A stretch of 64,000 nucleotides of DNA from a virus (IMGVR_UViG_3300045988_177552:98231-162230), one strand, 5' to 3'. Shown: positions 2,447 to 19,536, counted from the stretch's first letter. The notes: generated by a model from the letters alone, not told the origin. Program-made: numbers and translations.

Positions 2447-3508
2447 TTATAAATCTCCGCCCTTAATATATTCAACGATCAACTCAATACAGGCCTCCAC
2501 GTCAGTCCAACGTACAACTTCCACTGGAGTATGCATGGATCTGTTCGGGATACTCAAGAGAAGGGTTTCACAATCAAAGGATCTTTCCTGAATCCTTGAT
2601 GTATTTGTTCCTCCTGCCCTAGAGACGCCAACTTGATACGGAATTTCCTTCTCCTTGGCAACCTTAATGAGTTTCTCTGCTATTCTCCTACTCTTTCCAG
2701 GTCCAAATTCAATAACGACACCTTTCCCAAGCTTGACATCACCATACTTCGCCTTGGATATTCCGAATTCATCCTCAGTCGATGGAGTCACGTCTATGTC
2801 AATTGAAATGTCCGGATTAACTCTTGAAGCGACAACACCAGCACCTCTAAGTCCTGTCTCTTCCTGTGCCATTGCTGCTCCAATCAGATTTATCCCCTTC
2901 AAGTCATTATCCCCTAGCCTGGACATAACCTCCTCAGTGATATAAACTCCAATCTTATCATCGGTAGCCTCCGAAAGGATGAAATCTCCACTAGGTCCCC
3001 AATCAAGGTTCTCTAATCCTTTCTGAAATACGCAGAGACTTCCAATTCCTATCCCCAAGGATTCAACCTCTTCTTTATTTCTGCATCCCAAGTCAAGAAG
3101 AAGATCACTTACCTTTACCACTTTCTCGTATTCATCATCCTCTTGAACATGGATCGGTTTATAAGAGATTGCCCCAAGGTAGGATGTCCCATTTGATGTC
3201 AAGACCTGTAACCTTGAACCCGGCAGGACTCTTCTATCTTCTCCGGACAGGCAGGTAATATTACAAAATCCTCCTTCCGTTATGTTTGTTATCATGAAAC
3301 CAAGCTCATCAATGTGGCCTGATATCATAACCTTCTTTCCTCCCTTGTCTCCTTTTCGGAATACGCAGTTATTGAAGCTATCCTGGAAGAGAAGTTCACT
3401 ATTCCCTTCCATTTGTCTTTTGAATACCTCTACTCCACGTCCCTCGTCTGACGTTGGGGTTGGTGTTAGTAAGAGGTCTAGTAAGAAATTTTTATTATTC
3501 TTTTTCAT
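2447..3508 (-). CDS. M42-family aminopeptidase (FrvX/glutamyl aminopeptidase-like)
   Basis: 353 aa; MISGHIDELGFMI motif and overall layout typical of M42 peptidases. Confidence 0.55.
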   Translation of the reverse strand: MKKNNKNFLLDLLLTPTPTSDEGRGVEVFKRQMEGNSELLFQDSFNNCVFRKGDKGGKKVMISGHIDELGFMITNITEGGFCNITCLSGEDRRVLPGSRLQVLTSNGTSYLGAISYKPIHVQEDDEYEKVVKVSDLLLDLGCRNKEEVESLGIGIGSLCVFQKGLENLDWGPSGDFILSEATDDKIGVYITEEVMSRLGDNDLKGINLIGAAMAQEETGLRGAGVVASRVNPDISIDIDVTPSTEDEFGISKAKYGDVKLGKGVVIEFGPGKSRRIAEKLIKVAKEKEIPYQVGVSRAGGTNTSRIQERSFDCETLLLSIPNRSMHTPVEVVRWTDVEACIELIVEYIKGGDL

Positions 3509-3729
3509 ACTTCTTTAAATTTGTTTTTAAAGTCCTCTCTTTCTCTGACATATATACTTCCGCCTAGTTCAGTATCCTGGTACATTACTGCCTCAAACCA
3601 TCTTCTTGTTGTTGGATCTTTAGCAGTACATAAGCCAAGAACTTTATATTTTCCATCATGACTTAATCCCGTCTTAGGATTAGGTGTTTGATCTCTGAAC
3701 TCCACTATGGTTCCCTTGTCTGTAATCAT
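3505..3729 (-). CDS. hypothetical small protein
   Basis: 74-aa ORF tightly packed between neighbours. Confidence 0.3.
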   Translation of the reverse strand: MITDKGTIVEFRDQTPNPKTGLSHDGKYKVLGLCTAKDPTTRRWFEAVMYQDTELGGSIYVREREDFKNKFKEV

Positions 3730-6470
3730 TGTATAGCCTCCACTTTTGGTTTATCCTCTTCTATTGTAATTACGAACTTTGTTGCATCAGGTGTCCTAAG
3801 CATTTCATCGCTGACTGGTTCTACGACATACTTGATTATGTTCTTCTGTAAGTCTCTAGCACCAAACTTCTTATCAACCTTCCCAATGACAAACTTCCTA
3901 ACATCTGGATTGACTTTAATACCAACCCTCGTCTTGTTCAGGTTTCTTCTCAGCTTATCCAGCTCGATATTGAAGATCTTCTCCAGTTCAGCATCCCCAA
4001 GTGAGTTGAAAATCAGAATCGATGATAACCTACCTAAGAATTCCGGCCTGAAATGCTTCTCGACACTCTTCATTACAATACCACGATCCTTATTTCTCTG
4101 ATCCTCTTCTGATACTGAACCGAAGCCGATATTAAGAGAGGTTCCGAGTTCCTTAGTTCCTATATTACCTGTGAAGATAAGAACGCAATTTGTAAAGTCT
4201 ACCAACATACCATCAGCCATCTTACAGTAGCCTTGATCTGTAATGCTAAGAATAACATCCAGGATTTTTGGATTAAACTTCTCAACCTCATCAAACAAGA
4301 CTACCGACCTCTTATGCTGCCTAACCTTATTGAAAATTGCACTAGAGAAGTCTCCATGACCAACATAGCCAGCTGGAGCACCGATAAGCTTTGACAATGA
4401 ATGCTCCTCTTTGAACTCTCCACCATCAATCTTAATAAGGTCATTTCTACTACCAAAGAAGATATCCGCTACCTCCTCTGATATTAAGGTCTTACCAACT
4501 CCAGAAGGTCCTATAGCCAAAACACTGCATATCGGTTTTCTCTTATCCCTGATTCCTAAGGCGTTTAGTTGAATAGCCCTAGTGAATGTATCGATAGCTT
4601 CCTGTTGACCAATGACTCTCCTTTCCAATTCCTTCTTCATCAAGGCAATTTTCTCGTTGTCCGTCTGATTGATCTTATCTACAGGAATCCTAGACACCTT
4701 ACTTACAGCTGCTGCCACATAGTCTTTTGTCACCTCAGGCCAGTTCTTTCTCTTATCACCAGTTTTCTCATCTTTCTCCAACTGTGCTCTAAGGGCTTCT
4801 TCCTCAGCCTTCAGTTTTTCTCCAAGCTCAAAATCCATATCTTGGGTTACGGCCTGAATTTTCTGTTTCACCAAGTCAGCAATCTTAGCTTTCAGTTCAG
4901 CATTTTCATCCGTCAAGTTGCTGAGGAATGCCAAAGAACCAGCCAAGTCCATGACATCAATCGCTTTGTCAGGGAAGTTCTTATCACTTATATACCTATC
5001 AGACCACTCAACGCAAAGTTCTAGTGCTGCCTTAGTATATCTGACATGGTGATAAGACTCGTAGTGGGACTGAATACCCTTGAGAATCTTGAAAGTCTCT
5101 TGTACGTCGGGCTCTTCAATCTCTATCTGTGTAAACCTCCTATTCAGGGCAGCATCTTTCTCAATATACTTGTGATACTCTTCTACTGTAGTGGCTCCTA
5201 TACACTGAAACTCTCCTCTTGCAAGGTATGGTTTGAGTATATTAGCTAAGTCACCAGAGCCTGAAGATCCTGCATTGACAATATTATGAAGCTCATCAAT
5301 AAAGACGATGATTTCTCCCTTATGCTCAATGACCTCCTTAATGATTTTCTGGATTCTCTCCTCGAATTGACCACGATATTGAGTTCCAGCAATCAGGTCA
5401 TTTATATTAAGAGCACACAGCCTAATTCCCTTCATCCTCTCAGGAACCTCGCCAGCGACAATTCTCTGTGCAAGTCTTTCAACAATAGCACTTTTACCTC
5501 CACCGGCAGGTCCTGTTATTACGACTGAGTTCTTTTTTCTCTTGTTCAGGATTTCAACGATAGAATCTACCACAGAATCACGTCCTATTACAGAATCAAA
5601 CTCCTTTCTCTCAGCTTTCTTTGTATAATCAACTCCGAAACTGTCAAGAATTGGAGTATCACTGTTAGGATCTACCTCTGTTCCACTAAAGGCCTTTGAA
5701 TTTCCGTATTTTTCGAAGTTCTTCTCATCTTCTTCATGAGTATTCTTCTTCTCGTCTATCTCTTTCTTAGCCTCCTTCATAGCTTCTTTGGATATTTCCT
5801 CCAATTTCTTCTTATCCATTCCAGTAATAGATGATAAGAGATCTGTTACTTTAGAAGTTAAGTCATCTGTATAGTCTTCGGCAGCCTGTTTCCTATACTC
5901 GAACATGATTTTCTCAAGTTCCTCCTGAGATATATAGTCCGATAAGAGGTCTGAAAATTTACTATAGCCCTCACTTAAGACACAGAATAGAAAAACATCA
6001 GTATCAATTTCTCCAAGTCTCTCAGGGAATGACTTATTTGTGAACTCCAGAGCTGCTTCAAGTACCTCTGAAAGCTCTTCATCTGTTACGATTCCTCCAC
6101 CAATAGCAAACTCTTCAGGAATATTCTCTAAGTCTTGAAGCTGTGCAGATTGTTCGAGGAAAGTAAGCAAGTTATCCTTCATTTTTTCTGGTACTTTGCT
6201 TAGCAACCTAGTAAGAACAGTCTCCCTATTCTGTCTACATGTGATAAGTGGAAACAGAAGACGACCTACAACATCGACAACAGTTATTACAGGCCTATGA
6301 TTCCTCTCAGCGAATGCATAAGTCTCGGACATTACTGTTTTCAAATCTTTCGATAATCTAAATTCTTTTTTCTTTTTCATATTTAATTTGAATCTTTTGT
6401 TCATTAATAGGGATTTCACGTGTTCACAGTAGCAATTTTTACACCTTTTCCTTCTGTCTTCACCATCCAC
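3726..6470 (-). CDS. Clp/Hsp100 two-domain AAA+ ATPase (ClpA/ClpC-like unfoldase) with about 300-aa novel N-terminal region
   Basis: D1 Walker A GPAGGGKS, Walker B FIDELH; D2 GPSGVGKT, LFDEVEK; NIGFG loop resembling the ClpP-docking IGF loop; start probably at 6380 (MKKKKEF) or 6404 rather than 6470. Confidence 0.8.
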   Translation of the reverse strand: MDGEDRRKRCKNCYCEHVKSLLMNKRFKLNMKKKKEFRLSKDLKTVMSETYAFAERNHRPVITVVDVVGRLLFPLITCRQNRETVLTRLLSKVPEKMKDNLLTFLEQSAQLQDLENIPEEFAIGGGIVTDEELSEVLEAALEFTNKSFPERLGEIDTDVFLFCVLSEGYSKFSDLLSDYISQEELEKIMFEYRKQAAEDYTDDLTSKVTDLLSSITGMDKKKLEEISKEAMKEAKKEIDEKKNTHEEDEKNFEKYGNSKAFSGTEVDPNSDTPILDSFGVDYTKKAERKEFDSVIGRDSVVDSIVEILNKRKKNSVVITGPAGGGKSAIVERLAQRIVAGEVPERMKGIRLCALNINDLIAGTQYRGQFEERIQKIIKEVIEHKGEIIVFIDELHNIVNAGSSGSGDLANILKPYLARGEFQCIGATTVEEYHKYIEKDAALNRRFTQIEIEEPDVQETFKILKGIQSHYESYHHVRYTKAALELCVEWSDRYISDKNFPDKAIDVMDLAGSLAFLSNLTDENAELKAKIADLVKQKIQAVTQDMDFELGEKLKAEEEALRAQLEKDEKTGDKRKNWPEVTKDYVAAAVSKVSRIPVDKINQTDNEKIALMKKELERRVIGQQEAIDTFTRAIQLNALGIRDKRKPICSVLAIGPSGVGKTLISEEVADIFFGSRNDLIKIDGGEFKEEHSLSKLIGAPAGYVGHGDFSSAIFNKVRQHKRSVVLFDEVEKFNPKILDVILSITDQGYCKMADGMLVDFTNCVLIFTGNIGTKELGTSLNIGFGSVSEEDQRNKDRGIVMKSVEKHFRPEFLGRLSSILIFNSLGDAELEKIFNIELDKLRRNLNKTRVGIKVNPDVRKFVIGKVDKKFGARDLQKNIIKYVVEPVSDEMLRTPDATKFVITIEEDKPKVEAIQ
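6401..6427 (-). promoter_or_regulatory. promoter-like motif at the Clp ATPase start
   Basis: cattaatagggatttcacgtgttcac; near-identical core to 48957 and 708..729. Confidence 0.4.
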
Positions 6471-7318
6471 GGCACTAGGATTTGGTATGAGGTCTTAGTT
6501 TCTTTTCCAATTCCCAACAATCCATCCACCAGTCTGGCCTCTAAGAGGGGATGTAGGTGATTTGTTGGGGAAGGATCAATAAACGTCGTCCCACCAAAGA
6601 GAGAACTAAGGAAGTAGGGCAATGTTTCTATCAGGTACTGAGCCCCCGATCCAAGTTCCTCCAAGTCCATCTCTTTGTCCCTTCCTGAAAATAACCTCCA
6701 CTTCTGATCTATCCTGCCTATGGAGAGGTCTGATGTCACTAAGAATCCCTTCATCCATTTCTGTTGTTCTTCCTGTAATGACCATACCTTTTCCCAGACA
6801 CATTGTTTAGGAAGACATAACGAATTCCCTAAGATTTCCTGCATGAACTCTGCCACTGAAGGACATTCTTTCATCAATGGAATCCTGTAAGGTTGTTCAG
6901 GAAGATCCATATTCAGGAGTCCATCTATATTTGACGAAACAGACCAGAATATACTTTTAGGGATAGCCATTCCATTTGTTAATTCTAGGAGGACTTTAAA
7001 TTCTCCTCCACCTTTCTTTCTTAGGAGAAGTCTTTCATTAAATACTTTTCCCTCCTTATCTAAGACAAGGTTATAGCCATAGGTTTTCTTCTCATGTTCC
7101 CAGGTGATCATGAATTTTGTACCCGTCGTTTTCCCTTTTATCCAATCCAAGGAAACGCCTCTTTGTATCCAATCCATGTAATCTCTGAGACGTATAAAAA
7201 ATTCTTCAACATATAATCCGCACAGGTCATCCGTAACACTAATCAGTCCTGTTGGAATATCTTTTAATCTCTTTGTTCCAATAAATGGATCATCAATTAT
7301 TATTATATCTTTAATCAT
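6416..7318 (-). CDS. hypothetical protein with degenerate ABC-ATPase-like C-terminal motifs
   Basis: ELGSGAQ (signature-like) and TFIDPSPTNHLHP (Walker B/H-loop-like) but no canonical P-loop. Confidence 0.35.
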   Translation of the reverse strand: MIKDIIIIDDPFIGTKRLKDIPTGLISVTDDLCGLYVEEFFIRLRDYMDWIQRGVSLDWIKGKTTGTKFMITWEHEKKTYGYNLVLDKEGKVFNERLLLRKKGGGEFKVLLELTNGMAIPKSIFWSVSSNIDGLLNMDLPEQPYRIPLMKECPSVAEFMQEILGNSLCLPKQCVWEKVWSLQEEQQKWMKGFLVTSDLSIGRIDQKWRLFSGRDKEMDLEELGSGAQYLIETLPYFLSSLFGGTTFIDPSPTNHLHPLLEARLVDGLLGIGKETKTSYQILVPWMVKTEGKGVKIATVNT

Positions 7319-7349
7319 ATCATATATAAGGAATTGAAAAGAAAGGGCC

Positions 7350-7631
7350 TCAACACAACCCCTTCTTCTCTGCGAATACCCTAGCTCCTAACCTCTTATA
7401 GAGTTCCCAATTTTCTTCCATGTCATAAACTTTCCTCAGGCCCTCTAACTTATCTATCAAGGGCTGAACATCATCTAAGGAGCTTTCATGGATATCACAG
7501 GTAGGACAGTCATAGGTATAGGATGTAAAACCTGGAATATCCTCTAGGAAACCCCAAATAGGTGGAACCACTTTCTTCTTTATTATGTGTTCCTTCTTAC
7601 AAAATGGACACTTTATTCTTTTCATATTCAC
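7350..7631 (-). CDS. zinc-ribbon protein
   Basis: CPFC...CPTC Cys pairs in 93 aa. Confidence 0.4.
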   Translation of the reverse strand: MNMKRIKCPFCKKEHIIKKKVVPPIWGFLEDIPGFTSYTYDCPTCDIHESSLDDVQPLIDKLEGLRKVYDMEENWELYKRLGARVFAEKKGLC

Positions 7632-7656
7632 TAGTAAGGAAAAGAAAGGGAGGCTC

Positions 7657-7986
7657 CTAGTCCTCCCCCGAAATCAGGTTTCTTAATTCTTTTCCAGTCT
7701 CTTGTCTACCATAATCTTCCCAATGACATGTCCAAGCGGCTCCTGATATTTCAACCACCAAGACTCTTCCGTCCGATCCACCCCTTTGAATGGCCCTTGT
7801 GACAGCGTCTCGGATTGTATCTCTTTTTCTGGCTCCGCATTTTACAATAAAACATGTCTTTGTGAATTGAACAACTCCACCTCCACGACAATCTGCAAAC
7901 TTTTTACAGGCTTCTATAGCATCTTCATATCGCTGTTCCAATCCTTTTCCAGGATCTAGGGCAAATGTCACTAGGTAAGTTTCCAT
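7657..7986 (-). CDS. hypothetical protein
   Basis: 109-aa ORF, no recognisable motif. Confidence 0.35.
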   Translation of the reverse strand: METYLVTFALDPGKGLEQRYEDAIEACKKFADCRGGGVVQFTKTCFIVKCGARKRDTIRDAVTRAIQRGGSDGRVLVVEISGAAWTCHWEDYGRQETGKELRNLISGED

Positions 7987-8510
7987 TATTCTTGGCCTTC
8001 CTCTTTCTTTTCGAGAAGTTCTTTGAGACTGTTCTCAATTCTCTGACTGATGCTCTTGGTGAACTTCTTTGCTCCAGCCATGATATCATTGAGAGAGCTT
8101 TCCATGTTCAATACCTCACGGAGCTCCTTCACGTCTTTGTCATCGATGACCTTTTGAATCTTCTCACCAAGCATCTCCACGAGCTCACTATTCTCCAAGA
8201 ACTCAGATCCTTTATTCTTCAGGGCGTCATATCCCTCCAGGACCTTCTCCTTGAGTTCCTTAAGCAAACGTTCCTCACGCTCCTCATCTGTAAGACTAGC
8301 CTCTCTTACCATTGCGGCAATCTCTTCGTCCGACAGGTCAGGATTATTCTTGATTCTCTCAAAGATCTCCTCGCGTGTAGGTCTCTTATCTTCTTTCAGT
8401 TCTACCACACTGGCCTTAACGCCATTGATAAACTCTTCACTTGCCTCTTTAAAACTAGCTGCTGAGGCCTTAAGACTTTCATTGATCTTCTTCCAATTAA
8501 ATTTGCTCAT
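7986..8510 (-). CDS. acidic coiled-coil protein
   Basis: 174 aa, E/K-rich, predicted coiled coil. Confidence 0.35.
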   Translation of the reverse strand: MSKFNWKKINESLKASAASFKEASEEFINGVKASVVELKEDKRPTREEIFERIKNNPDLSDEEIAAMVREASLTDEEREERLLKELKEKVLEGYDALKNKGSEFLENSELVEMLGEKIQKVIDDKDVKELREVLNMESSLNDIMAGAKKFTKSISQRIENSLKELLEKKEEGQE

Positions 8511-8612
8511 ATTTTTTTTTAAATTAATAGTTTTTTAATCATATATAAGGAAATAAAGGGTGAGTAAGACTATCCATCCCGGACTGTCCTACTCTGTAAC
8601 AAAGTTGCCCAA

Positions 8613-8990
8613 TTAATTGCCTACTTTTATTATTTTAACTAAGGAAGAAAGAGAACTAACCCTTATCCCCAACTCCCTGACAACCTCTTCAACAGTATCA
8701 AACCTCTCCTTGAAGGATTGGTAATATTGTTTGGCGATTGCATATTGGTTTGGGTCTGGATCTGAAAGTTTTCTGTTGACCATCGCTATAAGTTCATCAA
8801 CATTCTCTTTCAACTCATCTTTCCCTAAGTTATATTCCTCTATAATCCTTTTTGCTTTTTCGAAATAGGACCTTATCTCTTCAATAGTGGCTTCCTTATT
8901 ACTAGCCTCTAATTCAAGTTTAGCCCTCTCTAATTCAGCCTCAATCCCAGATATCTTTGATTGAAGTTCATTAAATTTATCTTTCTCCAT
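8613..8990 (-). CDS. hypothetical coiled-coil protein
   Basis: 125-aa ORF. Confidence 0.35.
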   Translation of the reverse strand: MEKDKFNELQSKISGIEAELERAKLELEASNKEATIEEIRSYFEKAKRIIEEYNLGKDELKENVDELIAMVNRKLSDPDPNQYAIAKQYYQSFKERFDTVEEVVRELGIRVSSLSSLVKIIKVGN

Positions 8991-10022: not shown

Positions 10023-10039
10023 ATCTCTTTAATAAGTAT

Positions 10040-10381: not shown

Positions 10382-12507
10382 CGTCTAAGGATATTCTGAT
10401 AATATTCTGGTCCTGTTTCCTTTCTTCTCGACTTCATAAACTTCTCGTTAAGCTGATTTCCATGCTCCCTGAGAATCCTGAGGTAAGTTTCAGAAGACAT
10501 TGAACCATATTCTCCCAGGTATAAGGCTAGTTCTTTAATGAGTTTCTCTTCAGTCTCTATTATGGCCTTCGTTTCTCCAATCAAACCACTCCAGTTCTCC
10601 TTAATCTGGAAATCAACCTGAGAGGCTCTAACATCCATACCTCCCGGAATACCAGAAGATGTGTTCTCGGATTCTCTATCTGAATATGAGATAAAGTTGT
10701 AATAACCGAGTCTATAGGCCGCTGTTGAGAAATAGTTCCAGGAATCCTCAATATCACTCCCCGAACCAAGTAAGCACATCTCGTCTTCAAAGAAATGATG
10801 CTCTGCCAAGTAACCTGCCATTCCTACTTTGGTTGATATATCCAAGTCGAGTTTTGAATCAATTTCTCCCTCTTGTTCCTTGTTATAGGTTGAACAGAAT
10901 CCGCCATGATCTGTAGCTACTGAAACGATAGTGTCTGGAATTTGGCCTGTCAGGAAGGAATAGACTACAGCATGTCCAGCCTCATGAACAGAACTAGCAT
11001 ATCTCTTCTTTCTCTTTTCAGGATTTCTAACTCCTCCTAAGTTAAGCCTCTGAGTATATTCACAAGACTTTCCACCATCGAAGGTCAGGAAGATTGTGAT
11101 TTCCTCCATCTTAAATCCCCTAGTCAAGACTTTTTCGACATCCTTAATTCCAATCACGACCTCCTTATCTCTTTCCCCTTTCTCAATTAGAATTTTTGAA
11201 AGATAGGGAGTAAGAATAGTATTGATTGTAGTAAAGACAGGCCTAACTCCTTGTGTTGGAAATACGCCCTCTACATATAAGAGTTGATAGATCTCCTCAC
11301 ATACCTTAATGGTAATGGGGTCAACCTTCTCATTAAACTCCTTGATAATCCTGAGGACTTCATTCTTTATGATTTCCTCAAAGTGCCTCTTCCCTAGGGT
11401 TGGATATTTAATCAAGTTATTCCCTAACCTAGCAACCTGTTCTGGCCTATATCTCTTAAGCATTGCCCTCTTGATATCAGCCACAGTAACCTTAGATGTT
11501 ATATCACAGAAAATGTCAGCGTTCATGTCAGGGTCTAGGTCATCAGATACTCGAAATGCTTCATCCAAGTTTCCTATGACGATAACTAAGGATCCTGAAC
11601 AATCAAGTTTCTTTGTGACAGGCATGAGTTTCTTCTTCTCCTTGATAAACTCTGTAAGCTCCTTCAAAGACCATGTCCTGCCTATAATTTCTTCCACTAC
11701 ATTAACTCCAAGCCCTGATTCAACCTCATTCAGTTTCTTAACCAGGGTCCTCAAGTGTCCAGTTTCTAGCAAGACGAATGGGCCTTTATCTTCTGTGTCT
11801 GTCTCCTCTTCTCCACCTTCTCCAAATTTCCTAAGATTGGAATAGTGAAGAAATCCGAGAGACTTTTTTATAGCTTCCACGTCATCCTTTCCGTGAATAA
11901 CATTATTCTTCACTACAATTCCAGGATGACTATCAGCAAATACGCAAAGATCATCAAAGAAGTTGCAGAATTGGCTAAAATCCCAGGAATAATTCTCGTT
12001 CATGTGAAGAATTCCACTATCCAGAATTGACCAGATAGGACGGAGACTAGGCTTTACACACTCACTTCCCTCCTCATCTATAGTCCTGGCATATTGAAAC
12101 TCGTCAAAAACAAATACAGACCTATCAAGTTTTATTATTCCTCCATCCATCCTAGTAAAGATAGACTCTTCTTTATCCAAGCCGAAGGAATCGCTAATCA
12201 TTCCTGCCAGGTCTTTACTGTCATTTGAACACTCTCCACAATCGAAGGTCATAGAATTTCTTTCCAATCCCAAGAGTTCAAGCAATCTCTTAACAATACT
12301 ACTCTTTCCAGTACCTGTCATTCCCCAAAGACTAACGATGACTGGCCTTGTAATAATCTCAGGCGTTATATACCAACTTGAGATATTTTCACCAAGTTCG
12401 TCAATAATCTTATCCAGGCCAACAAATTCCTGTTTAAGTATTGAAAGAGATTTTTCCAATGTTTTAATTCTTTCCGCTCTTTCTGTCGGTTCAATTACTA
12501 TTTTCAT
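10378..12507 (-). CDS. P-loop ATPase fused to an FtsH-like (M41) zinc metalloprotease domain; no transmembrane segment seen
   Basis: N-terminal GMTGTGKSS Walker A; C-terminal HEAGHAVV HExxH plus downstream D/G pattern like the FtsH protease domain. Confidence 0.6.
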   Translation of the reverse strand: MKIVIEPTERAERIKTLEKSLSILKQEFVGLDKIIDELGENISSWYITPEIITRPVIVSLWGMTGTGKSSIVKRLLELLGLERNSMTFDCGECSNDSKDLAGMISDSFGLDKEESIFTRMDGGIIKLDRSVFVFDEFQYARTIDEEGSECVKPSLRPIWSILDSGILHMNENYSWDFSQFCNFFDDLCVFADSHPGIVVKNNVIHGKDDVEAIKKSLGFLHYSNLRKFGEGGEEETDTEDKGPFVLLETGHLRTLVKKLNEVESGLGVNVVEEIIGRTWSLKELTEFIKEKKKLMPVTKKLDCSGSLVIVIGNLDEAFRVSDDLDPDMNADIFCDITSKVTVADIKRAMLKRYRPEQVARLGNNLIKYPTLGKRHFEEIIKNEVLRIIKEFNEKVDPITIKVCEEIYQLLYVEGVFPTQGVRPVFTTINTILTPYLSKILIEKGERDKEVVIGIKDVEKVLTRGFKMEEITIFLTFDGGKSCEYTQRLNLGGVRNPEKRKKRYASSVHEAGHAVVYSFLTGQIPDTIVSVATDHGGFCSTYNKEQEGEIDSKLDLDISTKVGMAGYLAEHHFFEDEMCLLGSGSDIEDSWNYFSTAAYRLGYYNFISYSDRESENTSSGIPGGMDVRASQVDFQIKENWSGLIGETKAIIETEEKLIKELALYLGEYGSMSSETYLRILREHGNQLNEKFMKSRRKETGPEYYQNILRR

Positions 12508-12521
12508 ATTTTCACTAGTAT

Positions 12522-12992: not shown

Positions 12993-13956
12993 CTGTCAGA
13001 GTTAATCTTCCAATAAATTTTGCAGGCTCTTTCTCATAATAGAATACCATGTCCCTATCATCAGGATCAGGCTCAATTCCATTCAAGATTTCATATACTT
13101 GAGAATAATATTGCCGTTGAATTCCCTTGTATGTCGCTTTTCCATTGGTAAGGTCTGTTTTCTTGTAGACCCTAACAGTATGTCCATTCTGAGTAAGGAA
13201 CTCTATTGATGAAAGTCGGAAATTCTCTACCTTAACATTAATTCCAGTCTCATCGAATACCAAGTCCTCCATTCCTTCCAAGTCAACTTTCCCAGGTACC
13301 TCCAGGGTCATCTCATCATTACCTACTTGGATGATTGTTGAACCGGGTAGGTGACTATGAATCATAAGACCTGCCTGTCTCACTAGGTATTTTTCAACTT
13401 TAATCTGACTCTTAGCATTACAATTCCCTAAGATAACCTGCCTGAGATACTTTGATTCAGATACATACCACCTCAGGAGCTCTTTTCCATCTGGCATATA
13501 GGAAAGAAGCCATCTCTTATAGACATCATTAACCCTCTCCCCCTTCTTAGAGCCAAAGAAATCATCACTTAACCACATTAGGGCTTGAATATTTGCCTTC
13601 CTTAGGTCAATAGAGACATATGATTTTCCAATTCTAGCCTCATTATAGATATTTTCACCTCCCTGGCAGTTAATTTCCTGCGTCTTAGGGATAGGAGGTA
13701 GGTTTTTTAAGAGATCAAATGCAGGTGATCCATGAATACCTTGAATCAGGGACTCACGATAAGCATAAAAATCACTTAAGAAAGCTTCATAAGATCCACC
13801 ATATTCATTTTCAATTCCCTTGAGGAGCTTGGTCCATGATGTTTTTGATCCAAACTCTTTCTCAAACAAGGAAATTTGAAAACTCCAATATGGTTCTTCA
13901 TAAACAGTGACTGGTAATTTAAAATCATCTACAAATCTACTTTTTAATGTATTCAT
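12976..13956 (-). CDS. hypothetical protein
   Basis: 326-aa ORF, motif about 22 nt upstream of the ATG. Confidence 0.4.
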   Translation of the reverse strand: MNTLKSRFVDDFKLPVTVYEEPYWSFQISLFEKEFGSKTSWTKLLKGIENEYGGSYEAFLSDFYAYRESLIQGIHGSPAFDLLKNLPPIPKTQEINCQGGENIYNEARIGKSYVSIDLRKANIQALMWLSDDFFGSKKGERVNDVYKRWLLSYMPDGKELLRWYVSESKYLRQVILGNCNAKSQIKVEKYLVRQAGLMIHSHLPGSTIIQVGNDEMTLEVPGKVDLEGMEDLVFDETGINVKVENFRLSSIEFLTQNGHTVRVYKKTDLTNGKATYKGIQRQYYSQVYEILNGIEPDPDDRDMVFYYEKEPAKFIGRLTLTGENGN

Positions 13957-14034
13957 CTTATTTAAATTTTATAGTACATATATAAGGAAAAGGGAATTCC
14001 TTATAAGTGTAATGATAAAACAAAAATAAATTAT

Positions 14035-14406
14035 ATGTTTAATAGTAGAAAATTAGAAGTATTTGTATTACATCCTACGACAGGACATAAATCATATGAT
14101 GTCTATAGGGTAAAATATCAAAATCAAATACGAGATTACCTAGAAAAGAACAATTGTAGGAACCTGGTTAAGATTACACAGGCTGAACATGATGGTCGTA
14201 GAATTGATGTGCACCAGGAATCTACTGTACGGTGGAGACCTGGAGATATCTTAATCAAAGTTCCTGAAGGTGTAGACATATATTGGGGACTTAGGGACTT
14301 CTTGAATGACCTCAGTGAAGAAAGGGTAGCCAGAAATGAGCCCAGAGGTTTTAGGTGGTGTAGTCCTATTGAAGTTAGTACTGAAGAAGAGGCAGAAATC
14401 TTATGA
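14035..14406 (+). CDS. hypothetical protein
   Basis: first gene of a plus-strand operon 14035-17690. Confidence 0.4.
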   Translation: MFNSRKLEVFVLHPTTGHKSYDVYRVKYQNQIRDYLEKNNCRNLVKITQAEHDGRRIDVHQESTVRWRPGDILIKVPEGVDIYWGLRDFLNDLSEERVARNEPRGFRWCSPIEVSTEEEAEIL

Positions 14407-15452
14407 AAGGAAATTTCGGAATTAGGATTAGACGTGATAAGGAGAGAAACTATTATTCAGTCTGGCATAATTTAAAGACAACCAGGTTAGATGTAGGTGA
14501 ATCTAAGGACCTGAAGCCAGAAAGAAAAGAGTTTTATGATGTCGGCCTAGGGACAAAGTGTAATGCTATGTGTCCTTGGTGCTACGTATCTGCTAAGGGG
14601 GATGGTGAATTTTGGGAAAATCCATCGGAGATTTGGAAAAGGTGGATAGAAACATTCCCGTCCGATATCACCCTCACAGAAGATATGATGAGGGAGGATC
14701 CAGTATTTGAGGAACTATTCTACCCCGATAAAGGACAAGAATGGGATTCCTTGGATGCTGTGAAGTTATCAATGTTCTTAGTCTCTTCCAGATTAAGGCA
14801 TGATCCGATAACCCTTACCGAGAAGCCTTATCAAGTTGCAATCGGTAGTACAATGGAACCGACGATACATCCAGATTTCATAAAGTTCTTGGAAACGGTT
14901 CATTCTACTGGTGTTGTTCCAAACTATACAACGAACGGAATAACACTAGGGGGATCCAATAATCAAGAACTCCTAGAAGCAACTAGGGAATTTTGTGGTG
15001 GAGTAGCCGTATCTTTTGGTAATACCTTGATTAGGGATCAGGCGAGGAAAGCTATTAAGAACTTACTCAAGTACGATGAATATAAAGTCATGATTCACCA
15101 CTTGATTTCAGATAGGGAGAGTGTTGATGAAGTAGTCGACATTAGCAAAGAGTATAAGGGCCATATTCACTATCACGTCCTTCTCCCACTCATGAAACAT
15201 GGAAGATCGGAGAAAGGAATGGAAGATGACGGAACTTATCAATACCTAGCGGAGAAACTCGATAAGGAAGGAATAAAAAATGTCGCTTTTGGTGCTAATT
15301 TTCTCCCTTATATGGAAAAGTATCCAGGTCTCATTAAAGTCTATGAATACCCAAGTGAGATGTATAGTAATAATATTCTCTTGAAGGATGGGAAAGTAAT
15401 AATAACACCATCCTCATATAATCTGAACCCTATAATGGAAATTCAGGTATGA
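14403..15452 (+). CDS. radical SAM domain protein
   Basis: CX3CX2C (CNAMCPWC); overlaps upstream and downstream genes by 4 nt. Confidence 0.55.
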   Translation: MKGNFGIRIRRDKERNYYSVWHNLKTTRLDVGESKDLKPERKEFYDVGLGTKCNAMCPWCYVSAKGDGEFWENPSEIWKRWIETFPSDITLTEDMMREDPVFEELFYPDKGQEWDSLDAVKLSMFLVSSRLRHDPITLTEKPYQVAIGSTMEPTIHPDFIKFLETVHSTGVVPNYTTNGITLGGSNNQELLEATREFCGGVAVSFGNTLIRDQARKAIKNLLKYDEYKVMIHHLISDRESVDEVVDISKEYKGHIHYHVLLPLMKHGRSEKGMEDDGTYQYLAEKLDKEGIKNVAFGANFLPYMEKYPGLIKVYEYPSEMYSNNILLKDGKVIITPSSYNLNPIMEIQV

Positions 15453-15634
15453 TGACTATGGAACAGGTTATAATATTCTACAGTACATGTCAAGCTCCTA
15501 CCGAACGTGATCTCCTACGTGAAAGACTGGGAATGGAAGAGGAAGAGTTTGTTATGTATGAAGAATTTAAAGAAGGAAAGAACAGTAATTGGCTAATGAT
15601 AAATGAGTATTGTAGGCGTCCTTCAAAAGTATAG
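15449..15634 (+). CDS. small ORF (61 aa) translationally coupled to the radical SAM gene
   Basis: ATGA overlap with the rSAM stop; 2 Cys; acidic. Confidence 0.25.
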   Translation: MMTMEQVIIFYSTCQAPTERDLLRERLGMEEEEFVMYEEFKEGKNSNWLMINEYCRRPSKV

Positions 15635-16316
15635 TGAGATAACATTAGGGGAAGAATTACGTGGGCCATTACTAGGAACACTCTACAAAGAAGCAGAGCG
15701 GTACATTAGGCATATATATCTTGACAGGTTACACAGGACTTTCTTGTTTGACTTATTTCCAAGGAGAGGCTTAATAATTCCTTTGGAGATATTTTCAAGG
15801 TGGTTAGAACGCTTTGATGTCTCCAGAGTTGAAATCATATCTTCAGGAAGTTTCTTGTCCAGAATTCTCAAAGGTCCTGGATATGAGTCATTCAGTGGTT
15901 TGTTTCATGAGATAAACAGAACATGCTATTATCAAGGGGATCACTTCATTCTTGGGTTAATTCAATCTTTCAAGGATTCAACCCTTAATATGCAAGTGTT
16001 TCCTAATAACGAGGGATATATATTGCCTTATGATAGGTATTCCAGGAACTTTGGAAGAGATTGCCCATTATGGAACCTACTACCTGACGAAATTAGGTAC
16101 GGTGGGGCTAGTAGTATTAATGTTAAGTACCTGGATAGACGAGATGACCTATGTGTTTATGTAGGAAATTATGCTGTTATCTTCAAATTCAAGGATGACA
16201 TAGTTTTAATTTATGGAATCCTCGATCTCACTACAAGTAAATGGGTTTTCAATGAGAAATATGAACAAGTAAAAACATTATATAAGTATGAAAATAAAGA
16301 GAATAACTATTTTTGA
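15603..16316 (+). CDS. hypothetical protein
   Basis: 237-aa ORF in operon. Confidence 0.4.
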   Translation: MSIVGVLQKYSEITLGEELRGPLLGTLYKEAERYIRHIYLDRLHRTFLFDLFPRRGLIIPLEIFSRWLERFDVSRVEIISSGSFLSRILKGPGYESFSGLFHEINRTCYYQGDHFILGLIQSFKDSTLNMQVFPNNEGYILPYDRYSRNFGRDCPLWNLLPDEIRYGGASSINVKYLDRRDDLCVYVGNYAVIFKFKDDIVLIYGILDLTTSKWVFNEKYEQVKTLYKYENKENNYF

Positions 16317-17142
16317 ATGGTTCGGATCAAGGGATAACTTCTACTTAGAGTTGGATCCTGATGTTACGATCTTGAAAGGGAAAAATCAAACAGGGAAGAC
16401 GCTTTTCCTTCGCGATATTGAGTCCCTAGTGCAATGTGTCAGGAAGAATAAGACAACAGGAAGGGCTGAATGGAGTGGAGATACTACAGACGTCTTTGCT
16501 AGGGTAGAATTTGATGCTCCCAATACGACTGCAATGTGGGTTTCAAGAGAACTAACTGAAGCTAAAAGTCATGATGTCTACAGTGCTAAGAACTATAATC
16601 ACAATACACAGGACCTCATCAGTATTTGGGACCCTGAAACTGTCTTAGATATACAGACCCTTAACGACTTGACTGTAGAGAGTATTGATCTGATCTACTC
16701 TAAGATGAAAGATGAAGATCAGGATAAGGTCTTAAAAGCAATGAACTACGTGATGGGAGGAGACGAGACAATAGTAACTATCTATGAGATGGTAGCTTAC
16801 AATTCCTCTGCATTCAAAGTTAGATTCGCTGGCAAGAAGACTATGGATATTAGCCAACTTTCTTTCGGAGTAAAGATGTTATTCAATATCCTGATCAATA
16901 CTCCGGTGGGCGAAGGAAAGATCTACTTTATTGATAGTCCGGAACTTGGCATTAGTGATGACTGGAGTTCTAGGGTAATAACTGGAGTGAAAATGATTAA
17001 TCCGGATTGTCAAGTCTTAGTAACAACGAATCAGATCATGGTTGGAGATGAATGGCCTAAGAAGATGAAATCTATAAGTTCTTGTCTCCGTAAGGTTATT
17101 CCGACGTCTCCCACTAAGAAAGAAGAAGGAGGTGAAGCATGA
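16288..17142 (+). CDS. ABC/AAA_21-like ATPase
   Basis: Walker A GKNQTGKT, Walker B-like IYFIDSPELG. Confidence 0.5.
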   Translation: MKIKRITIFEWFGSRDNFYLELDPDVTILKGKNQTGKTLFLRDIESLVQCVRKNKTTGRAEWSGDTTDVFARVEFDAPNTTAMWVSRELTEAKSHDVYSAKNYNHNTQDLISIWDPETVLDIQTLNDLTVESIDLIYSKMKDEDQDKVLKAMNYVMGGDETIVTIYEMVAYNSSAFKVRFAGKKTMDISQLSFGVKMLFNILINTPVGEGKIYFIDSPELGISDDWSSRVITGVKMINPDCQVLVTTNQIMVGDEWPKKMKSISSCLRKVIPTSPTKKEEGGEA

Positions 17143-17690
17143 AGAAGCTAATTTCACGTTTCATCTTAGGAATCCTTGGTTGGAAGCTGGAAGGAGAATG
17201 GCCTAAGGATGTGAGGAAAAGTATAATTTGCTTTGCTCCCCATACCTCATATTCAGATGGATTTATAGGGAAACTCTTCTTCTGGCAACTTGGAGTAAAA
17301 CATAAATGCATGATGACCAAGAAATATTTCAATTGGATAACATCACCATTCCTGAGACTCTTCGGTTTCATTCCGGTAGGTGGTGTTAAAGGTCATAATG
17401 CAGTCTTAGATGCCGTTGGATATCTTAAGGAATCGGATGAGTTGAATATCCTGATCTGTCCAGAGGCTCACTTAAGAAAAATAGAGTCATGGAACTTAGG
17501 ATTCATCAGGATAGCAGAGAAAGCGAAGGTTCCTATCGTCTTTGGATATCTGAATTATAAAGATAAGAAGGGAGGAATCTTGGGATATACGGAATCTTCA
17601 GAATGGGTTAATGTAAAATCTGAGATCTACACAACCTATGAGAAAGAGTGGGCTAAGTATCCAGAGAAGTTTTCATTCCCCATGAACTAA
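17139..17690 (+). CDS. PlsC-like lysophospholipid acyltransferase
   Basis: HX4D (APHTSYSDG) and PEG-like block (ICPEAHLRK). Confidence 0.5.
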   Translation: MKKLISRFILGILGWKLEGEWPKDVRKSIICFAPHTSYSDGFIGKLFFWQLGVKHKCMMTKKYFNWITSPFLRLFGFIPVGGVKGHNAVLDAVGYLKESDELNILICPEAHLRKIESWNLGFIRIAEKAKVPIVFGYLNYKDKKGGILGYTESSEWVNVKSEIYTTYEKEWAKYPEKFSFPMN

Positions 17691-17699
17691 AAAAAAATA

Positions 17700-17736
17700 A
17701 AGGATAAGGTTTCTTAGTATTCCTTATCTTTTTTCT
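17700..17736 (+). terminator. intrinsic terminator hairpin plus T-tract after the plus-strand operon
   Basis: gataagg / ccttatc stem with 12-nt loop followed by TTTTTT. Confidence 0.45.
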
Positions 17737-17814
17737 TCCCTGGAGTAAAAAAAAGGAAAGGCCTATCTTCACAGACGAGCCAATCCAAAGCAAAACTTAT
17801 CATCGAATTTTTTT

Positions 17815-18009
17815 TTATGAAATAATAGTACTAGCAATACCTTTGACAGTTTCTAGTTCTTTTCTCAAGCTTTTGTTCTCTTTCCTCAGAGTAACCGTCT
17901 CTTCAGTTAGCCTTCGGATTTTACTTTCAAGCCTTTCGATCTTCTCTACTAAGCCTTTAATACTCTTTTCATTTCCGAGTACTTTCTTTTGCATAGTATC
18001 TTCTGTCAT
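17815..18009 (-). CDS. small coiled-coil protein
   Basis: 64 aa heptad-like K/E/L repeats. Confidence 0.25.
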   Translation of the reverse strand: MTEDTMQKKVLGNEKSIKGLVEKIERLESKIRRLTEETVTLRKENKSLRKELETVKGIASTIIS

Positions 18010-18030
18010 TGGTTTTCGGAATTAGTTATA

Positions 18031-18774
18031 TTACTCTTTCCTTCCTACGCTATATATCTCATTTATTCCAAGACATCTATATCCAGTTTCTCCATAGTGA
18101 CCCGTCAGAGATTGATGATGGTGTCCATAAAACCACTGAGAACACCTTACTTCATACAAAACATGATCGAGATATCTCCTGGTATTCAAGACCTTTTCCC
18201 ATGTCTCATAAGCAACATCATCTCCTCTCATTGGAATAGGTAGGAAACTCATTGGGGCTTCATGTGAGACAACTATATCTACACGTGTAGGTAATCCCCT
18301 CTCTTTAACAATGGGACTTTCATTTTCCCACCAGACTCTTCTCCTTGAACCAAACCTGATTAATCTATCATTCTCCTGTCTCCTACTTCTGAGTCTTCCA
18401 TAACATCCGGGCTTATCTATATCTACTGACACAGCTCCGCCAACAGGATATATTAAGAATCCACATAGGGTCACAGGAATATGATCAGGCAGGAAATGAA
18501 GCCTGGAGTAATCATGTTCTCCATCAAACCAAGAAGGATCATCATGGTTTCCTCTGATTGTATAGAGAGTCAAGTTATTTTTCTCTAACTTATCCTTTAC
18601 TTTATCATAGAGGACATCCATTGACTTAGGACCACCAAACCCAACTCCGAAGTCTCCAACTATCAAGATATCAGAGTCCCTAACCTTTTTCTGAATCACT
18701 AAGGTATGCACTAAGAGTTTTAATTCTCCGTGTATATCTCCACAAATATATAAACATTTCTTTTCCATATTCAT
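18031..18774 (-). CDS. calcineurin-like metallophosphoesterase (Ser/Thr phosphatase-like)
   Basis: GDIHG, GDFGVGFG, GNHD motifs. Confidence 0.6.
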   Translation of the reverse strand: MNMEKKCLYICGDIHGELKLLVHTLVIQKKVRDSDILIVGDFGVGFGGPKSMDVLYDKVKDKLEKNNLTLYTIRGNHDDPSWFDGEHDYSRLHFLPDHIPVTLCGFLIYPVGGAVSVDIDKPGCYGRLRSRRQENDRLIRFGSRRRVWWENESPIVKERGLPTRVDIVVSHEAPMSFLPIPMRGDDVAYETWEKVLNTRRYLDHVLYEVRCSQWFYGHHHQSLTGHYGETGYRCLGINEIYSVGRKE

Positions 18775-18816
18775 CAGTAAGGTTTTAGGTTCTTCAAGGG
18801 CGCGTTTTCCTTAATT

Positions 18817-19536
18817 ATGAATATGATTATAAACATTAATAATATGAAACGAGACTTTAGAAAATTTTTTAAGTCAAGACATCCATTTGAGATGACAGTA
18901 CTTGACGATTATGAGAAGAAGACTAAGACAGGTCTGATCACTCCCTACGTTACTAGGGAAAGCCAAGAAAGAATGGTTCAGGTCGATGTATTCTCGGAGT
19001 TAATGAGCAATAGGATCCTCTTCTTTGGGGATGAGGTTAATTCAGATACCTCCAATATCGCTCTTTCCCAGCTTCTGTACCTTCATGCAAATTCTCACGA
19101 ACCCATCACAGTTTACATCTCATCACCTGGAGGAGCTGTATATAATGGATTGGCACTCTACGATACGATGCAGCTTGTGGGGAAAGATTGCATAGTAAGG
19201 ACTGTCTGCTTGGGATTAGCAGCTTCAATGGGTAGTATTCTCATGGTCGGTGGAACAAGGGGTCATAGATCTGCGCTTGAACATAGCCGTATCATGATTC
19301 ACTCTGTATCAACTGGTTCAGATAGAGTTACGTATCCTGACTTGAAGATCTTAAGCGAAGAAACAGGAAAACTGAACGATGAACTGATGACAATCCTTTC
19401 AGAGAAGACAGGAAAACCGATCGAAGAAGTTATAAAAGATGCTGGAAGAGATTGCTGGCTTAAGGCGAGTGAATGTTTGCCTGGAGTTTATGGAAAGTTT
19501 GGACTTATTGATAGTATAGTTACTACTTTGCAGTAA
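18817..19536 (+). CDS. clpP: ATP-dependent Clp protease proteolytic subunit
   Basis: ClpP family hallmarks: ILFFGDEV, SSPGG, GLAASMGS (active Ser), His/Asp region. Confidence 0.85.
   Translation: MNMIININNMKRDFRKFFKSRHPFEMTVLDDYEKKTKTGLITPYVTRESQERMVQVDVFSELMSNRILFFGDEVNSDTSNIALSQLLYLHANSHEPITVYISSPGGAVYNGLALYDTMQLVGKDCIVRTVCLGLAASMGSILMVGGTRGHRSALEHSRIMIHSVSTGSDRVTYPDLKILSEETGKLNDELMTILSEKTGKPIEEVIKDAGRDCWLKASECLPGVYGKFGLIDSIVTTLQ

Follow-up and report, generated by a model that had tools for sequence, protein, structure and literature searches.

A predicted soluble fusion of a Clp-type AAA+ module with an M41 metalloprotease domain, and the protein quality-control genes that accompany it in a probable jumbo phage

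The stretch of viral DNA analysed here, IMGVR_UViG_3300045988_177552:98231-162230 (64 kb, about 39% G+C, genes in strand blocks; its whole length is called the window below), carries genes for a ClpC-type Hsp100 ATPase, ClpP, an M42 aminopeptidase, GroEL with a GroES-like partner, and a 709-residue protein which joins an ATPase of the Clp type to a protease domain of the FtsH type (M41) in one chain. An original prediction made from the sequence alone had named all of these genes, and each was found where it had been placed, with the catalytic residues intact. Their coordinates are collected in Table 1 with those of the other features. We consider it probable that the phage carries, in these genes, captured and diverged cellular protein-quality-control functions.

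The fusion protein and its companions in the window

The AlphaFold model of the fusion (predicted local distance difference test, pLDDT, 82) was compared with solved structures by Foldseek, which matched the full length with FtsH (4ww0 and 3kds, E 1e-9) and the N-terminal half with the second nucleotide-binding domain of ClpB (template-modelling score, TM, 0.66). That the ATPase part does not look like the classical AAA module of FtsH had been predicted, and profiles and alignments bear this out. Over 48 members of the family, Pfam recognised ClpB_D2-small in 45, Torsin in 21 and PF00004, the family of the classic AAA clade, in none. The profile of 48 homologues matched, in the PDB, the D2-small domain of ClpC/Hsp104 (2e-10) and the FtsH protease domain 2di4 (2e-11); it did not match any FtsH AAA domain there, the FtsH chains being found through the protease half only. 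The alignment program hhalign placed residues 16-436 onto the D2 module of the window's own Clp family (probability 94.8%, E 5e-8). The invariant or at least 95% conserved columns comprise G62 to K68 of Walker A, D135 and E136 of Walker B, the RYRPEQxARxGNN box, and R156, W159, D163 and G165 in a helix after Walker B that resembles the LDDG helix of Clp D2 modules. Two regions depart from the Clp pattern. At the position of the pore-1 loop, the phage members have [LF]-G-[LFI]-[DE] followed by a variable acidic stretch (pLDDT <50 at residues 113-121), and the bacterial homologues have a deletion; the long helical insert is present in phage and bacterial members alike and is left unaligned to Clp D2 by hhalign.

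In the model, a small β-rich linker domain precedes the protease half. There, H508, E509, G511 and H512 remain at least 95% conserved once bacterial homologues are included, the motif reading HE[ASTC]GH in 80/80 of the latter, and E569 and D585 follow the first histidine at +61 and +77, spacings which we take to match E479 (the structural glutamate) and D495 (the third zinc ligand) of E. coli FtsH. The expected match of the HEAGH region to Peptidase_M41 holds for the family, with E<=1e-3 in 48/48 members (best 1.9e-15; 64.9 bits for the Ohtaekwangia homologue) and a profile that leads to 2di4; it does not hold for the window's sequence taken alone, which scores 25.8 bits with PF01434, below the gathering score of 29.9, and this counts against our assignment. 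The NCBIfam model FtsH_fam gave 19.5 bits for a cut-off of 600, over residues 500-671 only. No transmembrane helix was predicted in the fusion (maximum 19-residue Kyte-Doolittle mean 1.19), and the hydropathy peaks of the homologues correspond to the HExxH helix. Since Walker A already stands at residues 62-69, there is no room for the membrane and periplasmic part of FtsH, in agreement with the predicted lack of a membrane anchor. Judged on these residues and profiles, the protease half would be a genuine M41 domain and the protein an M41 protease, not an FtsH; both halves look active on every defining residue.

The Hsp100 ATPase probably starts at the ATG at 6404 rather than at the GTG at 6470; a near-identical homologue (P0124) has 892 residues. 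It shows the Walker A motifs GPAGGGKS (D1) and GPSGVGKT (D2) and the pore loops QYRG (D1) and GYVG (D2), and a coiled-coil stretch of about 55 residues, read by eye after AAA_lid_9, forms a short middle domain. The best match of the D2 half is S. aureus ClpC (2.9e-55), and the protein reaches none of the NCBIfam equivalog cut-offs. The IGF-like loop already noticed in it proved well founded: G761 and F762 are invariant in 34 homologues of the phage clade, and the loop sits on the FAGFG of ClpC.

The N-terminal region of this ATPase had been described as novel and 300 residues long. Pfam Clp_N gave no match to it, even at E 10. An AlphaFold model was built from 20 homologous N-regions (pLDDT >85 at residues 20-170), and the top 50 PDB matches retrieved with it by Foldseek were all Clp N-domains (ClpB, ClpC, ClpA, ClpT, Hsp104), the best being that of ClpB (1khy, TM 0.75, root-mean-square deviation 3.8 Å), with ClpC 3fes and ClpA 1k6k also matched. 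The idea of a new domain was rejected on this ground: of some 270 residues in all, the first 160 or so fold as a divergent Clp N-domain. What remains unusual is the extra helical linker which follows, and which contains an FEKYG motif. Two alignments of ClpC-like proteins show F231 invariant and E232 and G235 conserved to at least 90%, and the motif is kept in all ClpC-like homologues of the phage clade; D-x-x-FEKYG directly precedes the canonical DPNSxTPxLD entry to D1. The length and pattern of the N-region are conserved among homologues on contigs of 310-430 kb. To our knowledge, the FEKYG motif does not occur in cellular ClpC; it could be an adaptor-binding or autoregulatory element.

The orf300 gene upstream of the ATPase gave weak matches only (AAA_21 0.0046, AriA 0.003) and none among the PHROG families. 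Terminator-like hairpins at 7370-7336(-) and 2458-2441(-), the latter directly after the M42 stop codon, bracket the co-oriented and tightly packed orf300, clpC-like and M42 genes. This arrangement is only suggestive of one transcription unit; the number of terminator-like hairpins in the window is not above that in shuffled sequence. A sigma-70 promoter scan was uninformative (55 sites for 52.9 expected), promoters of the Bacteroidota type lying outside that model.

The M42 aminopeptidase scores 240.8 bits with PF05343 (cut-off 23.2); its best solved relative is 4wwv (5e-50), on which the HxDE, DD, QEE, D and H metal and catalytic motifs are aligned. The Ser-His-Asp triad of ClpP, on which the original prediction depended, is kept and aligns with Coxiella and other ClpPs (E 2e-39). 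Its identity to bacterial ClpPs, taken over the whole of their length, is about 40%. Cellular NCBIfam models score 195 and 184 bits on it, against 58-67 bits for those of ClpP-like prohead proteases, and the equivalog cut-offs are missed (195 vs 361 bits); the best PHROG is phrog_94 'head maturation protease' (1.8e-29). A terminator-like hairpin follows the gene at 19546-19572(+). GroEL passes the NCBIfam cut-off of NF000592 (493 bits for 397), and the GroES-like protein is weakly supported (Pfam Cpn10 E 0.013, 16 bits, below the gathering score of 21.1); the two genes are also adjacent, in the same order, in a related phage locus (L051).

Taken together, the motifs and the model suggest that the ClpC-like ATPase and ClpP would have everything needed for a phage-encoded ClpCP protease, which we hold fairly probable as part of the overall explanation given below.

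A calcineurin-like phosphoesterase gene, 18031-18774(-), divergently adjoins clpP, and a weak phosphoesterase homologue also stands beside clpP in a clade of 340-kb contigs (L076-L081, about 3667-5826), which suggests that the pairing is conserved. Cellular-looking ClpC, GroEL and M42 genes also occur on many short INPHARED records (OR847299.1, OR846612.1, MT837238.1) named 'Listeria phage LM 4-11-1', 'Enterococcus phage Efs 1-1-1', 'Staphylococcus phage SA 1306 Kay' or 'Bacteriophage sp.'; these look like bacterial fragments, and they raise the apparent phage counts for the three genes.

The fusion family and its genomic neighbourhoods

At least 1215 full-length homologues of the fusion were returned by a word-indexed search, and by an exhaustive hidden Markov model search the family numbers 974 representatives at 50% identity (E<=1e-30), the top 150 of which nearly all measure 655-790 residues. 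Their source annotations read 'hypothetical protein', 'Peptidase M41 domain-containing protein' or, wrongly, 'cell division protease FtsH', and there is no family-specific model in NCBIfam or Pfam. The IMG/VR scans for the fusion and for the ClpC-like ATPase used alignments as queries; scans with single proteins gave 0 loci for the Clp ATPase and 1 for ClpP. In this database, 71 fusion loci fall into 16 lineages at 75% identity, most of them on contigs of 80-400 kb (largest 401 kb). Most phage lineages are 38-45% identical to the window's fusion and about 30-33% to the bacterial members, and the contigs L069-L073 are about equally distant from both. No match to the fusion was found among deposited phage genomes (megablast and tblastn, 50,697 INPHARED records), and a fold search in BFVD returned only giant-virus FtsH/Yme1 proteins with low TM-scores.

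The bacterial relatives come from a scan of one genome per GTDB species, which gave 193, nearly all from Bacteroidota/FCB, isolates and megabase-size contigs included; among the isolates are Ohtaekwangia koreensis, Aquiflexum lacus, Parachryseolinea silvisoli, Dawidia soli, Chryseosolibacter histidini and Brumimicrobium oceani. Of the 193, 80 were retained, and all 80 share a common length and common motif positions. An invention of the family by phages was rejected, since Bacteroidota chromosomes carry it. One homologue from a 376-kb contig of a 'Bacilli' metagenome-assembled genome from water-deer omasum (L156, JAGAYY010000025.1) is 43% identical to the window's fusion; the contig is probably that of a jumbo phage binned into a bacterial genome, because this identity resembles the phage clade and not the approximately 30% of the true bacterial members.

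The window itself would probably come from a jumbo phage genome of about 305 kb with a Bacteroidota host, because the relatives of the fusion lie on large viral contigs and the nearest phage relatives of ClpP and GroEL are, respectively, Prevotella Lak phages (43% identity) and Bacteroides phages (40%). An identical copy of the fusion protein is encoded on a 304,892-bp metagenomic contig; megablast against the same INPHARED records gave no close DNA relative of the window.

The bacterial neighbourhoods were described by clustering the open reading frames (ORFs) around the 80 genes, searching representatives with Pfam and counting by tblastn, the counts referring to the 65 loci with at least 2.5 kb upstream. 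RtcB lies directly upstream of the fusion homologue, on the same strand, in 24/65 loci, where the protease is the last gene; in 15 of those 24 a PrfH-like release-factor homologue with a GGQ motif stands between the two, with gaps of about -100 to +40 bp. In another 16/65 an HTH-WYL-WCX regulator is directly upstream. The rtcB2-prfH pair has been characterised experimentally: the nascent chain is released from ribosomes damaged by ribotoxins, and the 16S rRNA is religated (PMC9304027). A PrfH subfamily of Bacteroidota also rescues non-stop ribosomes (PMC12829566), and Baranov et al. noted that rescue of the RFH type proceeds without a degradation tag like that of tmRNA (PMC1586002). Because rescue by PrfH leaves the released peptide untagged, the protease would, by analogy, be a reasonable fit as a functional third partner of the rtcB-prfH system.

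In the phages, by contrast with the combined set in one region that had been predicted, the genes do not form one operon. In the window, GroEL/GroES lie 35 kb away, and radical SAM, acyltransferase, phosphoesterase and many unknown ORFs are interleaved. A conserved phage operon of the fusion with the Clp ATPase, ClpP or M42 was rejected, as synteny is not conserved: none of 72 related phage loci has a Clp ATPase at 10 kb or less from the fusion, and ClpP is about 100 kb from it in IMGVR_UViG_3300031992_000005. Within 10 kb of the fusion, M42 was found in the window, L034, L073 and L236, HSP20 in L236, which belongs to the clade closest to the window, ClpP in L074, GroES/GroEL in L051 and DnaJ in L070-L072, where a full DnaJ gene directly follows. 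RNA-repair genes occur within the same distance in three other lineages, including a Pnkp-phosphatase-Rnl1 fusion about 3 kb from the protease in the 340-kb clade and RtcB in L065 and L045. None of these neighbour counts is statistically strong alone. At a larger scale, six IMG/VR contigs carry the fusion and the ClpC-like gene about 30 kb apart, and the same ClpC-like N-region is covered in 5/6 of them, the match starting at residue 199 in 3300008101_000010. The 340-kb clade has all three genes: besides the fusion there is a ClpP (58% identity), separated from the ClpC-like gene by 3.7 kb. Four more assemblies list one and the same longest-contig size for the fusion and the ClpC-like protein, by which the two are linked to a single contig. 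The trio of fusion, ClpC-like ATPase and ClpP is kept in at least two diverged lineages.

The rest of the window contains replication and repair genes of phage type: a DnaB-like helicase, an SbcC-like nuclease which may be an SbcD-SbcC fusion, HNH homing endonucleases and an NAD-dependent ligase. Radical-SAM-like ORFs flank the protease block on both sides. A cluster resembling NAD salvage (19651-22811), in which a transposase-like ORF separates the two salvage ORFs, is in keeping with the NAD+ synthesis genes reported from jumbo phages of the gut (PMC11662467).

Table 1. Positions of the features discussed, in the window or, where a locus handle is given, in that related locus
Feature	Position	Strand	Basis or remark
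AAA+/M41 metalloprotease fusion, soluble, Clp-D2-type, 709 aa	10378-12507	-	Model, fold search, profiles
ATPase half, residues 1-446	11170-12507	-	Single Clp/Hsp100 D2-like AAA+ module plus D2-small domain
Walker A, residues 62-69	12301-12324	-	At least 95% conserved, phage and bacterial members
Equivalent of Clp D2 GYVG pore-1 loop, residues 105-125	12133-12195	-	Alignments
Walker B, residues 132-137	12097-12114	-	At least 95% conserved, phage and bacterial members
Insertion of ~130 aa, mostly helical, residues ~170-300	11608-12000	-	From post-Walker-B helix to sensor-1 strand
Sensor-1 GNLDEA	11557-11580	-	At least 95% conserved, phage and bacterial members
RYRPEQVARLGNN box, equivalent of Clp D2 FRPEFLNR (Arg-finger region)	11416-11454	-	At least 95% conserved
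Sensor-2 QGVRP	11239-11253	-	At least 95% conserved, phage and bacterial members
M41 zinc protease domain, residues 500-670	10498-11010	-	HEAGH, E569, D585
HEAGH, residues 508-512	10972-10986	-	H508, E509, G511, H512 invariant in 48 phage homologues
E569	10801-10803	-	Invariant or at least 95% conserved
D585	10753-10755	-	Invariant or at least 95% conserved
ClpC-type double-ring Hsp100 ATPase, 892 aa	3726-6404	-	Pfam AAA, AAA_lid_9, AAA_2, ClpB_D2-small
Divergent Clp N-domain, residues ~17-158	5934-6359	-	Fold search
Extra helical linker, N-domain to D1	5700-5927	-	Predicted helices 161-195, 199-236, lower confidence
FEKYG motif in linker	5703-5717	-	Conserved, acidic residues before it
NIGFG loop in D2 (ClpP-docking tripeptide IGF)	4119-4133	-	Aligns on S. 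aureus ClpC FAGFG loop
orf300, 300 aa, directly upstream of and overlapping Clp ATPase start	6416-7318	-	Weak P-loop matches
M42 (TET-type) aminopeptidase, 353 aa	2447-3508	-	Pfam Peptidase_M42 2e-71, profile positions 5-292/292
ClpP, cellular type, 239 aa	18817-19536	+	Pfam CLP_protease 7e-50
ClpP catalytic Ser (AASMG)	19219-19233	+	Aligns with solved ClpPs
ClpP catalytic His (MIHS)	19294-19305	+	Aligns with solved ClpPs
ClpP catalytic Asp (GRDCW)	19444-19458	+	Aligns with solved ClpPs
GroEL, 541 aa	47017-48642	-	phrog_5725 8e-123
Divergent GroES-like co-chaperonin, 86 aa, directly upstream of GroEL	48657-48917	-	phrog_3188 6.5e-6, full length
Radical-SAM-like ORF	1292-2068	-	Pfam 1e-11; one side of protease block
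Radical-SAM-like ORF	14403-15452	+	Weak match; other side of protease block
Isochorismatase/nicotinamidase-like ORF	19651-20451
Transposase-like ORF	20441-21655		phrog_10081
Nicotinate phosphoribosyltransferase	21624-22811		Pfam 5e-42
SbcC-like protein, 920 aa	25073-27835	-	Metallophosphoesterase N-terminus and SbcC-like body; replication/repair gene
DnaB-like helicase, then at once a 461-aa HNH homing endonuclease	32890-36153	+
NAD-dependent DNA ligase	45019-46536	-
Bacterial rtcB-(prfH)-protease operons	L200 3554-7028; L209 2845-7052; L217 2695-7022; L221 3588-7082		Protease last gene
HSP20 beside fusion	L236 3273-3617	-	Clade closest to window
DnaJ, IF3 and sigma-70 genes beside fusion in L070-L072	L070 12893-14011, 15036-15593	+
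Pnkp-phosphatase-Rnl1 fusion	L001 4666-6831	-	340-kb clade
RtcB near phage fusion	L065 5410-6663	-
Tpt1, RlaP and CCA-adding enzyme near phage fusion	L237 12715-13251, 16294-17589, 20293-21660

A probable quality-control toolkit and the competing explanations

The explanation that we favour, and regard as fairly probable, is that of a loosely linked, host-derived quality-control toolkit, in which a phage ClpCP, M42 and GroEL/GroES accompany a soluble Clp-D2/M41 protease that would act after translation damage. The fusion would assemble into a ring, as FtsH and Lon do, and the hydrolysis of ATP would feed substrates to the M41 chamber. Because the family is without the canonical pore-1 loop, the handling of substrates would probably involve the helical insert, or be limited to polypeptides that are already unfolded or short. 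Because its Bacteroidota homologue stands last in rtcB-prfH operons or directly behind a WYL stress regulator, the fusion would most likely serve to clear aberrant polypeptides or damaging proteins that arise when translation is damaged and ribosomes are rescued. The peptides so released would be trimmed to amino acids by M42, and the combined use of the fusion, ClpCP, M42 and GroEL/GroES would allow productive protein synthesis and folding in the infected cell. As for the remodelling or degradation of host proteins, or the folding of phage products, suggested by the original prediction, the enzymes are real and look catalytically competent, but they do not constitute one functional region, and the bacterial context, used by analogy, speaks for quality control in the wake of translation damage no less strongly than for bulk degradation of host proteins.

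Several observations weigh against this explanation, in addition to the M41 score of the window's own sequence. Neither the phage nor the bacterial members have, in the alignments, a canonical GYVG pore-1 loop, which speaks against classical processive unfolding. About 23/65 bacterial loci have neither RtcB/PrfH nor the WYL regulator upstream, the link to ribosome rescue rests, for the phage, on bacterial homologues only about 30% identical, and the 64-kb window contains no rtcB, prfH or RNA ligase gene (tblastn E<=1e-4). Synteny among the phages is poor: of all neighbours only M42 recurs in at least 3 of 16 lineages, and the enrichment is modest, since ±10 kb represents some 7% of a 300-kb genome and chance alone would give about one lineage. 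Finally, the L069-L073 contigs, with their DnaJ, IF3 and sigma-factor genes, could be mis-called cellular DNA.

Were ClpCP and the M41 fusion to cut the host proteome in bulk, M42 finishing the digestion and GroEL/GroES folding large phage proteins, the active look of all the protease sequences, the presence of M42 near the fusion in four lineages and the adjacent, co-oriented, hairpin-bracketed clpC-like and M42 genes would find a simple place. We judge this somewhat unlikely: the fusion is without the pore-1 loop expected in a general unfoldase, its bacterial relatives stand in damage-response operons and not in nutrient-scavenging contexts, nothing points to host proteins as substrates, and hairpins of the bracketing kind are no more numerous than in shuffled sequence. 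At the opposite extreme, the genes may be unconnected cargo, acquired singly from Bacteroidota hosts, each acting or drifting independently and without forming a proteostasis system. The unkept synteny argues for it (no Clp ATPase near the fusion in the 72 loci, a remote ClpP in one relative, the distance of GroEL/GroES and the unrelated genes interleaved in the window), as does the patchy occurrence of single components in other jumbo phages (PMC7824862). Unconnected cargo is nevertheless unlikely, given that active-site and partner-docking residues are conserved over lineages 43-60% identical, that a second diverged clade has kept the fusion, ClpP and a ClpC-like protein whose N-region is the same lineage-specific one, and that four further assemblies link fusion and Clp matches.

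Two narrower functions have also to be considered. The fusion could serve in counter-defence, destroying host immunity proteins or ribotoxins such as anticodon nucleases and rRNA-cleaving toxins, its ATPase being a recognition or switch module; the helical insert particular to the family could bind a defined target, and the missing pore loop would fit. The bacterial gene is linked to the rtcB-prfH counter-ribotoxin system (PMC9304027, PMC6514570) and neighbours WYL regulators typical of conflict systems, and in phages the gene has Pnkp-Rnl1, RtcB, Tpt1, RlaP and CCA-adding enzymes in its vicinity. However, only 3/16 phage lineages have these RNA-repair neighbours, which are divergently oriented; like ring translocases, the family conserves the Arg-finger box and sensor-2; and the defence-protein models of PADLOC give only weak P-loop matches, on which ground the fusion was rejected as a known defence component; we consider counter-defence quite unlikely. 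Most improbable of all appears a service in virion assembly, with the ClpP-like protein as prohead maturation protease, as its best PHROG would have it, and the chaperones and ATPases assisting capsid and tail. Help of the GroEL/GroES type in capsid folding is classical (T4 gp31) and speaks for it, and AAA+ chaperones of jumbo phages have been proposed to aid assembly (PMC7824862). Against this stand the cellular ClpP models, which outscore those of prohead proteases about threefold, the full-length likeness to bacterial ClpPs, the size of 239 residues with no scaffold or capsid fusion, neighbours that are NAD-salvage and phosphoesterase genes instead of structural ones, and the ClpP-docking loop retained by the partner ATPase.

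The toolkit reading can be carried further, into a proposal which is speculative and which we consider unlikely as it stands: the fusion would be the founding member of a soluble, hitherto unrecognised class of AAA+ metalloproteases, whose Clp-D2-type ring would drive the M41 chamber although it has no canonical pore loop; it would be the missing proteolytic arm of PrfH/RtcB rescue and repair in Bacteroidota, captured by jumbo phages against abortive infection. If so, it would dispose of the untagged truncated polypeptides or of the ribotoxins left by the PrfH/RtcB pathway, and its capture together with RNA-repair enzymes, ClpCP and chaperonins would keep translation running in the face of abortive-infection systems that target it. 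More generally, the link with rtcB-prfH operons offers a testable hypothesis for a known gap, the peptide released by PrfH being untagged, unlike that of tmRNA (PMC1586002). The absence of the usual gripping loop raises the mechanistic question of how substrates are engaged. The near-complete quality-control toolkit carried by jumbo phages of gut and oral Bacteroidota bears on their independence from the host.

Relation to known systems

The architectures of AAA+ proteases are few: ClpXP, ClpAP and ClpCP, HslUV, Lon, FtsH and the proteasome ATPases. The present family, of about a thousand clusters, would add to them a Clp D2-type motor joined to an FtsH-type protease in one soluble chain; as far as could be found, this architectural variant is apparently undescribed. 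With FtsH, Yme1 and AFG3L2 it shares the order of ATPase and protease in a single chain and a C-terminal M41 domain with HEAGH, the structural glutamate and the third-ligand aspartate at FtsH-like spacing. It differs from them by the lack of N-terminal transmembrane helices and of a periplasmic domain, by an ATPase of Clp D2 type with a sensor-2 arginine and a D2-small domain and without an MFVG-type pore loop, and by the helical insert and the β-rich linker domain. With the D2 modules of ClpB, ClpC, ClpA and Hsp104, and with Torsin, it has in common Walker A and B, an LDDG-like helix, the sensor-1 asparagine, a FRPEFxNR-like arginine box, a GAR(P) sensor-2 and the D2-small domain; unlike Clp/Hsp100 proteins, it is a single ring module and not a tandem, a protease of its own takes the place of a ClpP docked by an IGF loop, and GYVG is replaced or deleted. 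Lon is also a soluble single-chain AAA+ protease, and its ATPase belongs to the same broad (HCLR) group as Clp D2. The protease of Lon is nevertheless of the Ser-Lys type, whereas that of the fusion is a zinc M41 domain, and Lon possesses an N-domain, missing from the fusion, and the canonical pore-1 aromatic residue.

In the case of the rtcB2-prfH operon, the likeness lies in the Bacteroidota homologue situated directly downstream of, and co-oriented with, RtcB and the PrfH-like protein. As published, the operon is a two-gene unit with accessory TPR, NTase and Zn-ribbon proteins and no protease (PMC9304027, PMC1586002, PMC6514570), and our literature search found no protease partner of rtcB-prfH. 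The same search returned nothing relevant on a phage or soluble Clp-M41 protease. The sole report of a phage FtsH-like protein is that of MIJ3/PA5oct (PMC6892783), which was rejected as a relative of the fusion because tblastn detected no similarity.

The phage ClpC-like ATPase and ClpP resemble the ClpCP of Firmicutes and Actinobacteria in the two AAA rings, the short coiled-coil middle domain, the N-domain of Clp_N fold, the docking loop at the position of the AGF loop of S. aureus ClpC, the KYR- and GYVG-type pore loops and the full triad of ClpP. They differ in an N-domain too divergent for Pfam Clp_N, in the extra linker of about 75 residues with its conserved FEKYG, and in that an adaptor of the MecA or McsB type was not recognised near the phage gene.

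As regards the whole set, the huge-phage paper (PMC7162821) and a 2026 review of jumbo phages (PMC13282480) do not mention Clp, GroEL, chaperones or FtsH, and the Jug-phage paper (PMC12880540) gives CLP_protease as a frequent Pfam domain only, with no mention of FtsH or chaperones. By tblastn, M42, ClpP, a Clp ATPase or GroEL are scattered in Lak phages and in the 'huge phages' of 460-735 kb, and no single deposited genome was found to hold the ClpC-like ATPase, ClpP, M42, GroEL, GroES and the M41 fusion together. ClpP, ClpA, ClpX, ClpS, HSP60, HSP10, DnaJ and MoxR have each been described in subsets of jumbo phages (PMC7824862), and the gene set of the window, taken as a whole, is a fuller version of these known jumbo-phage proteostasis genes.

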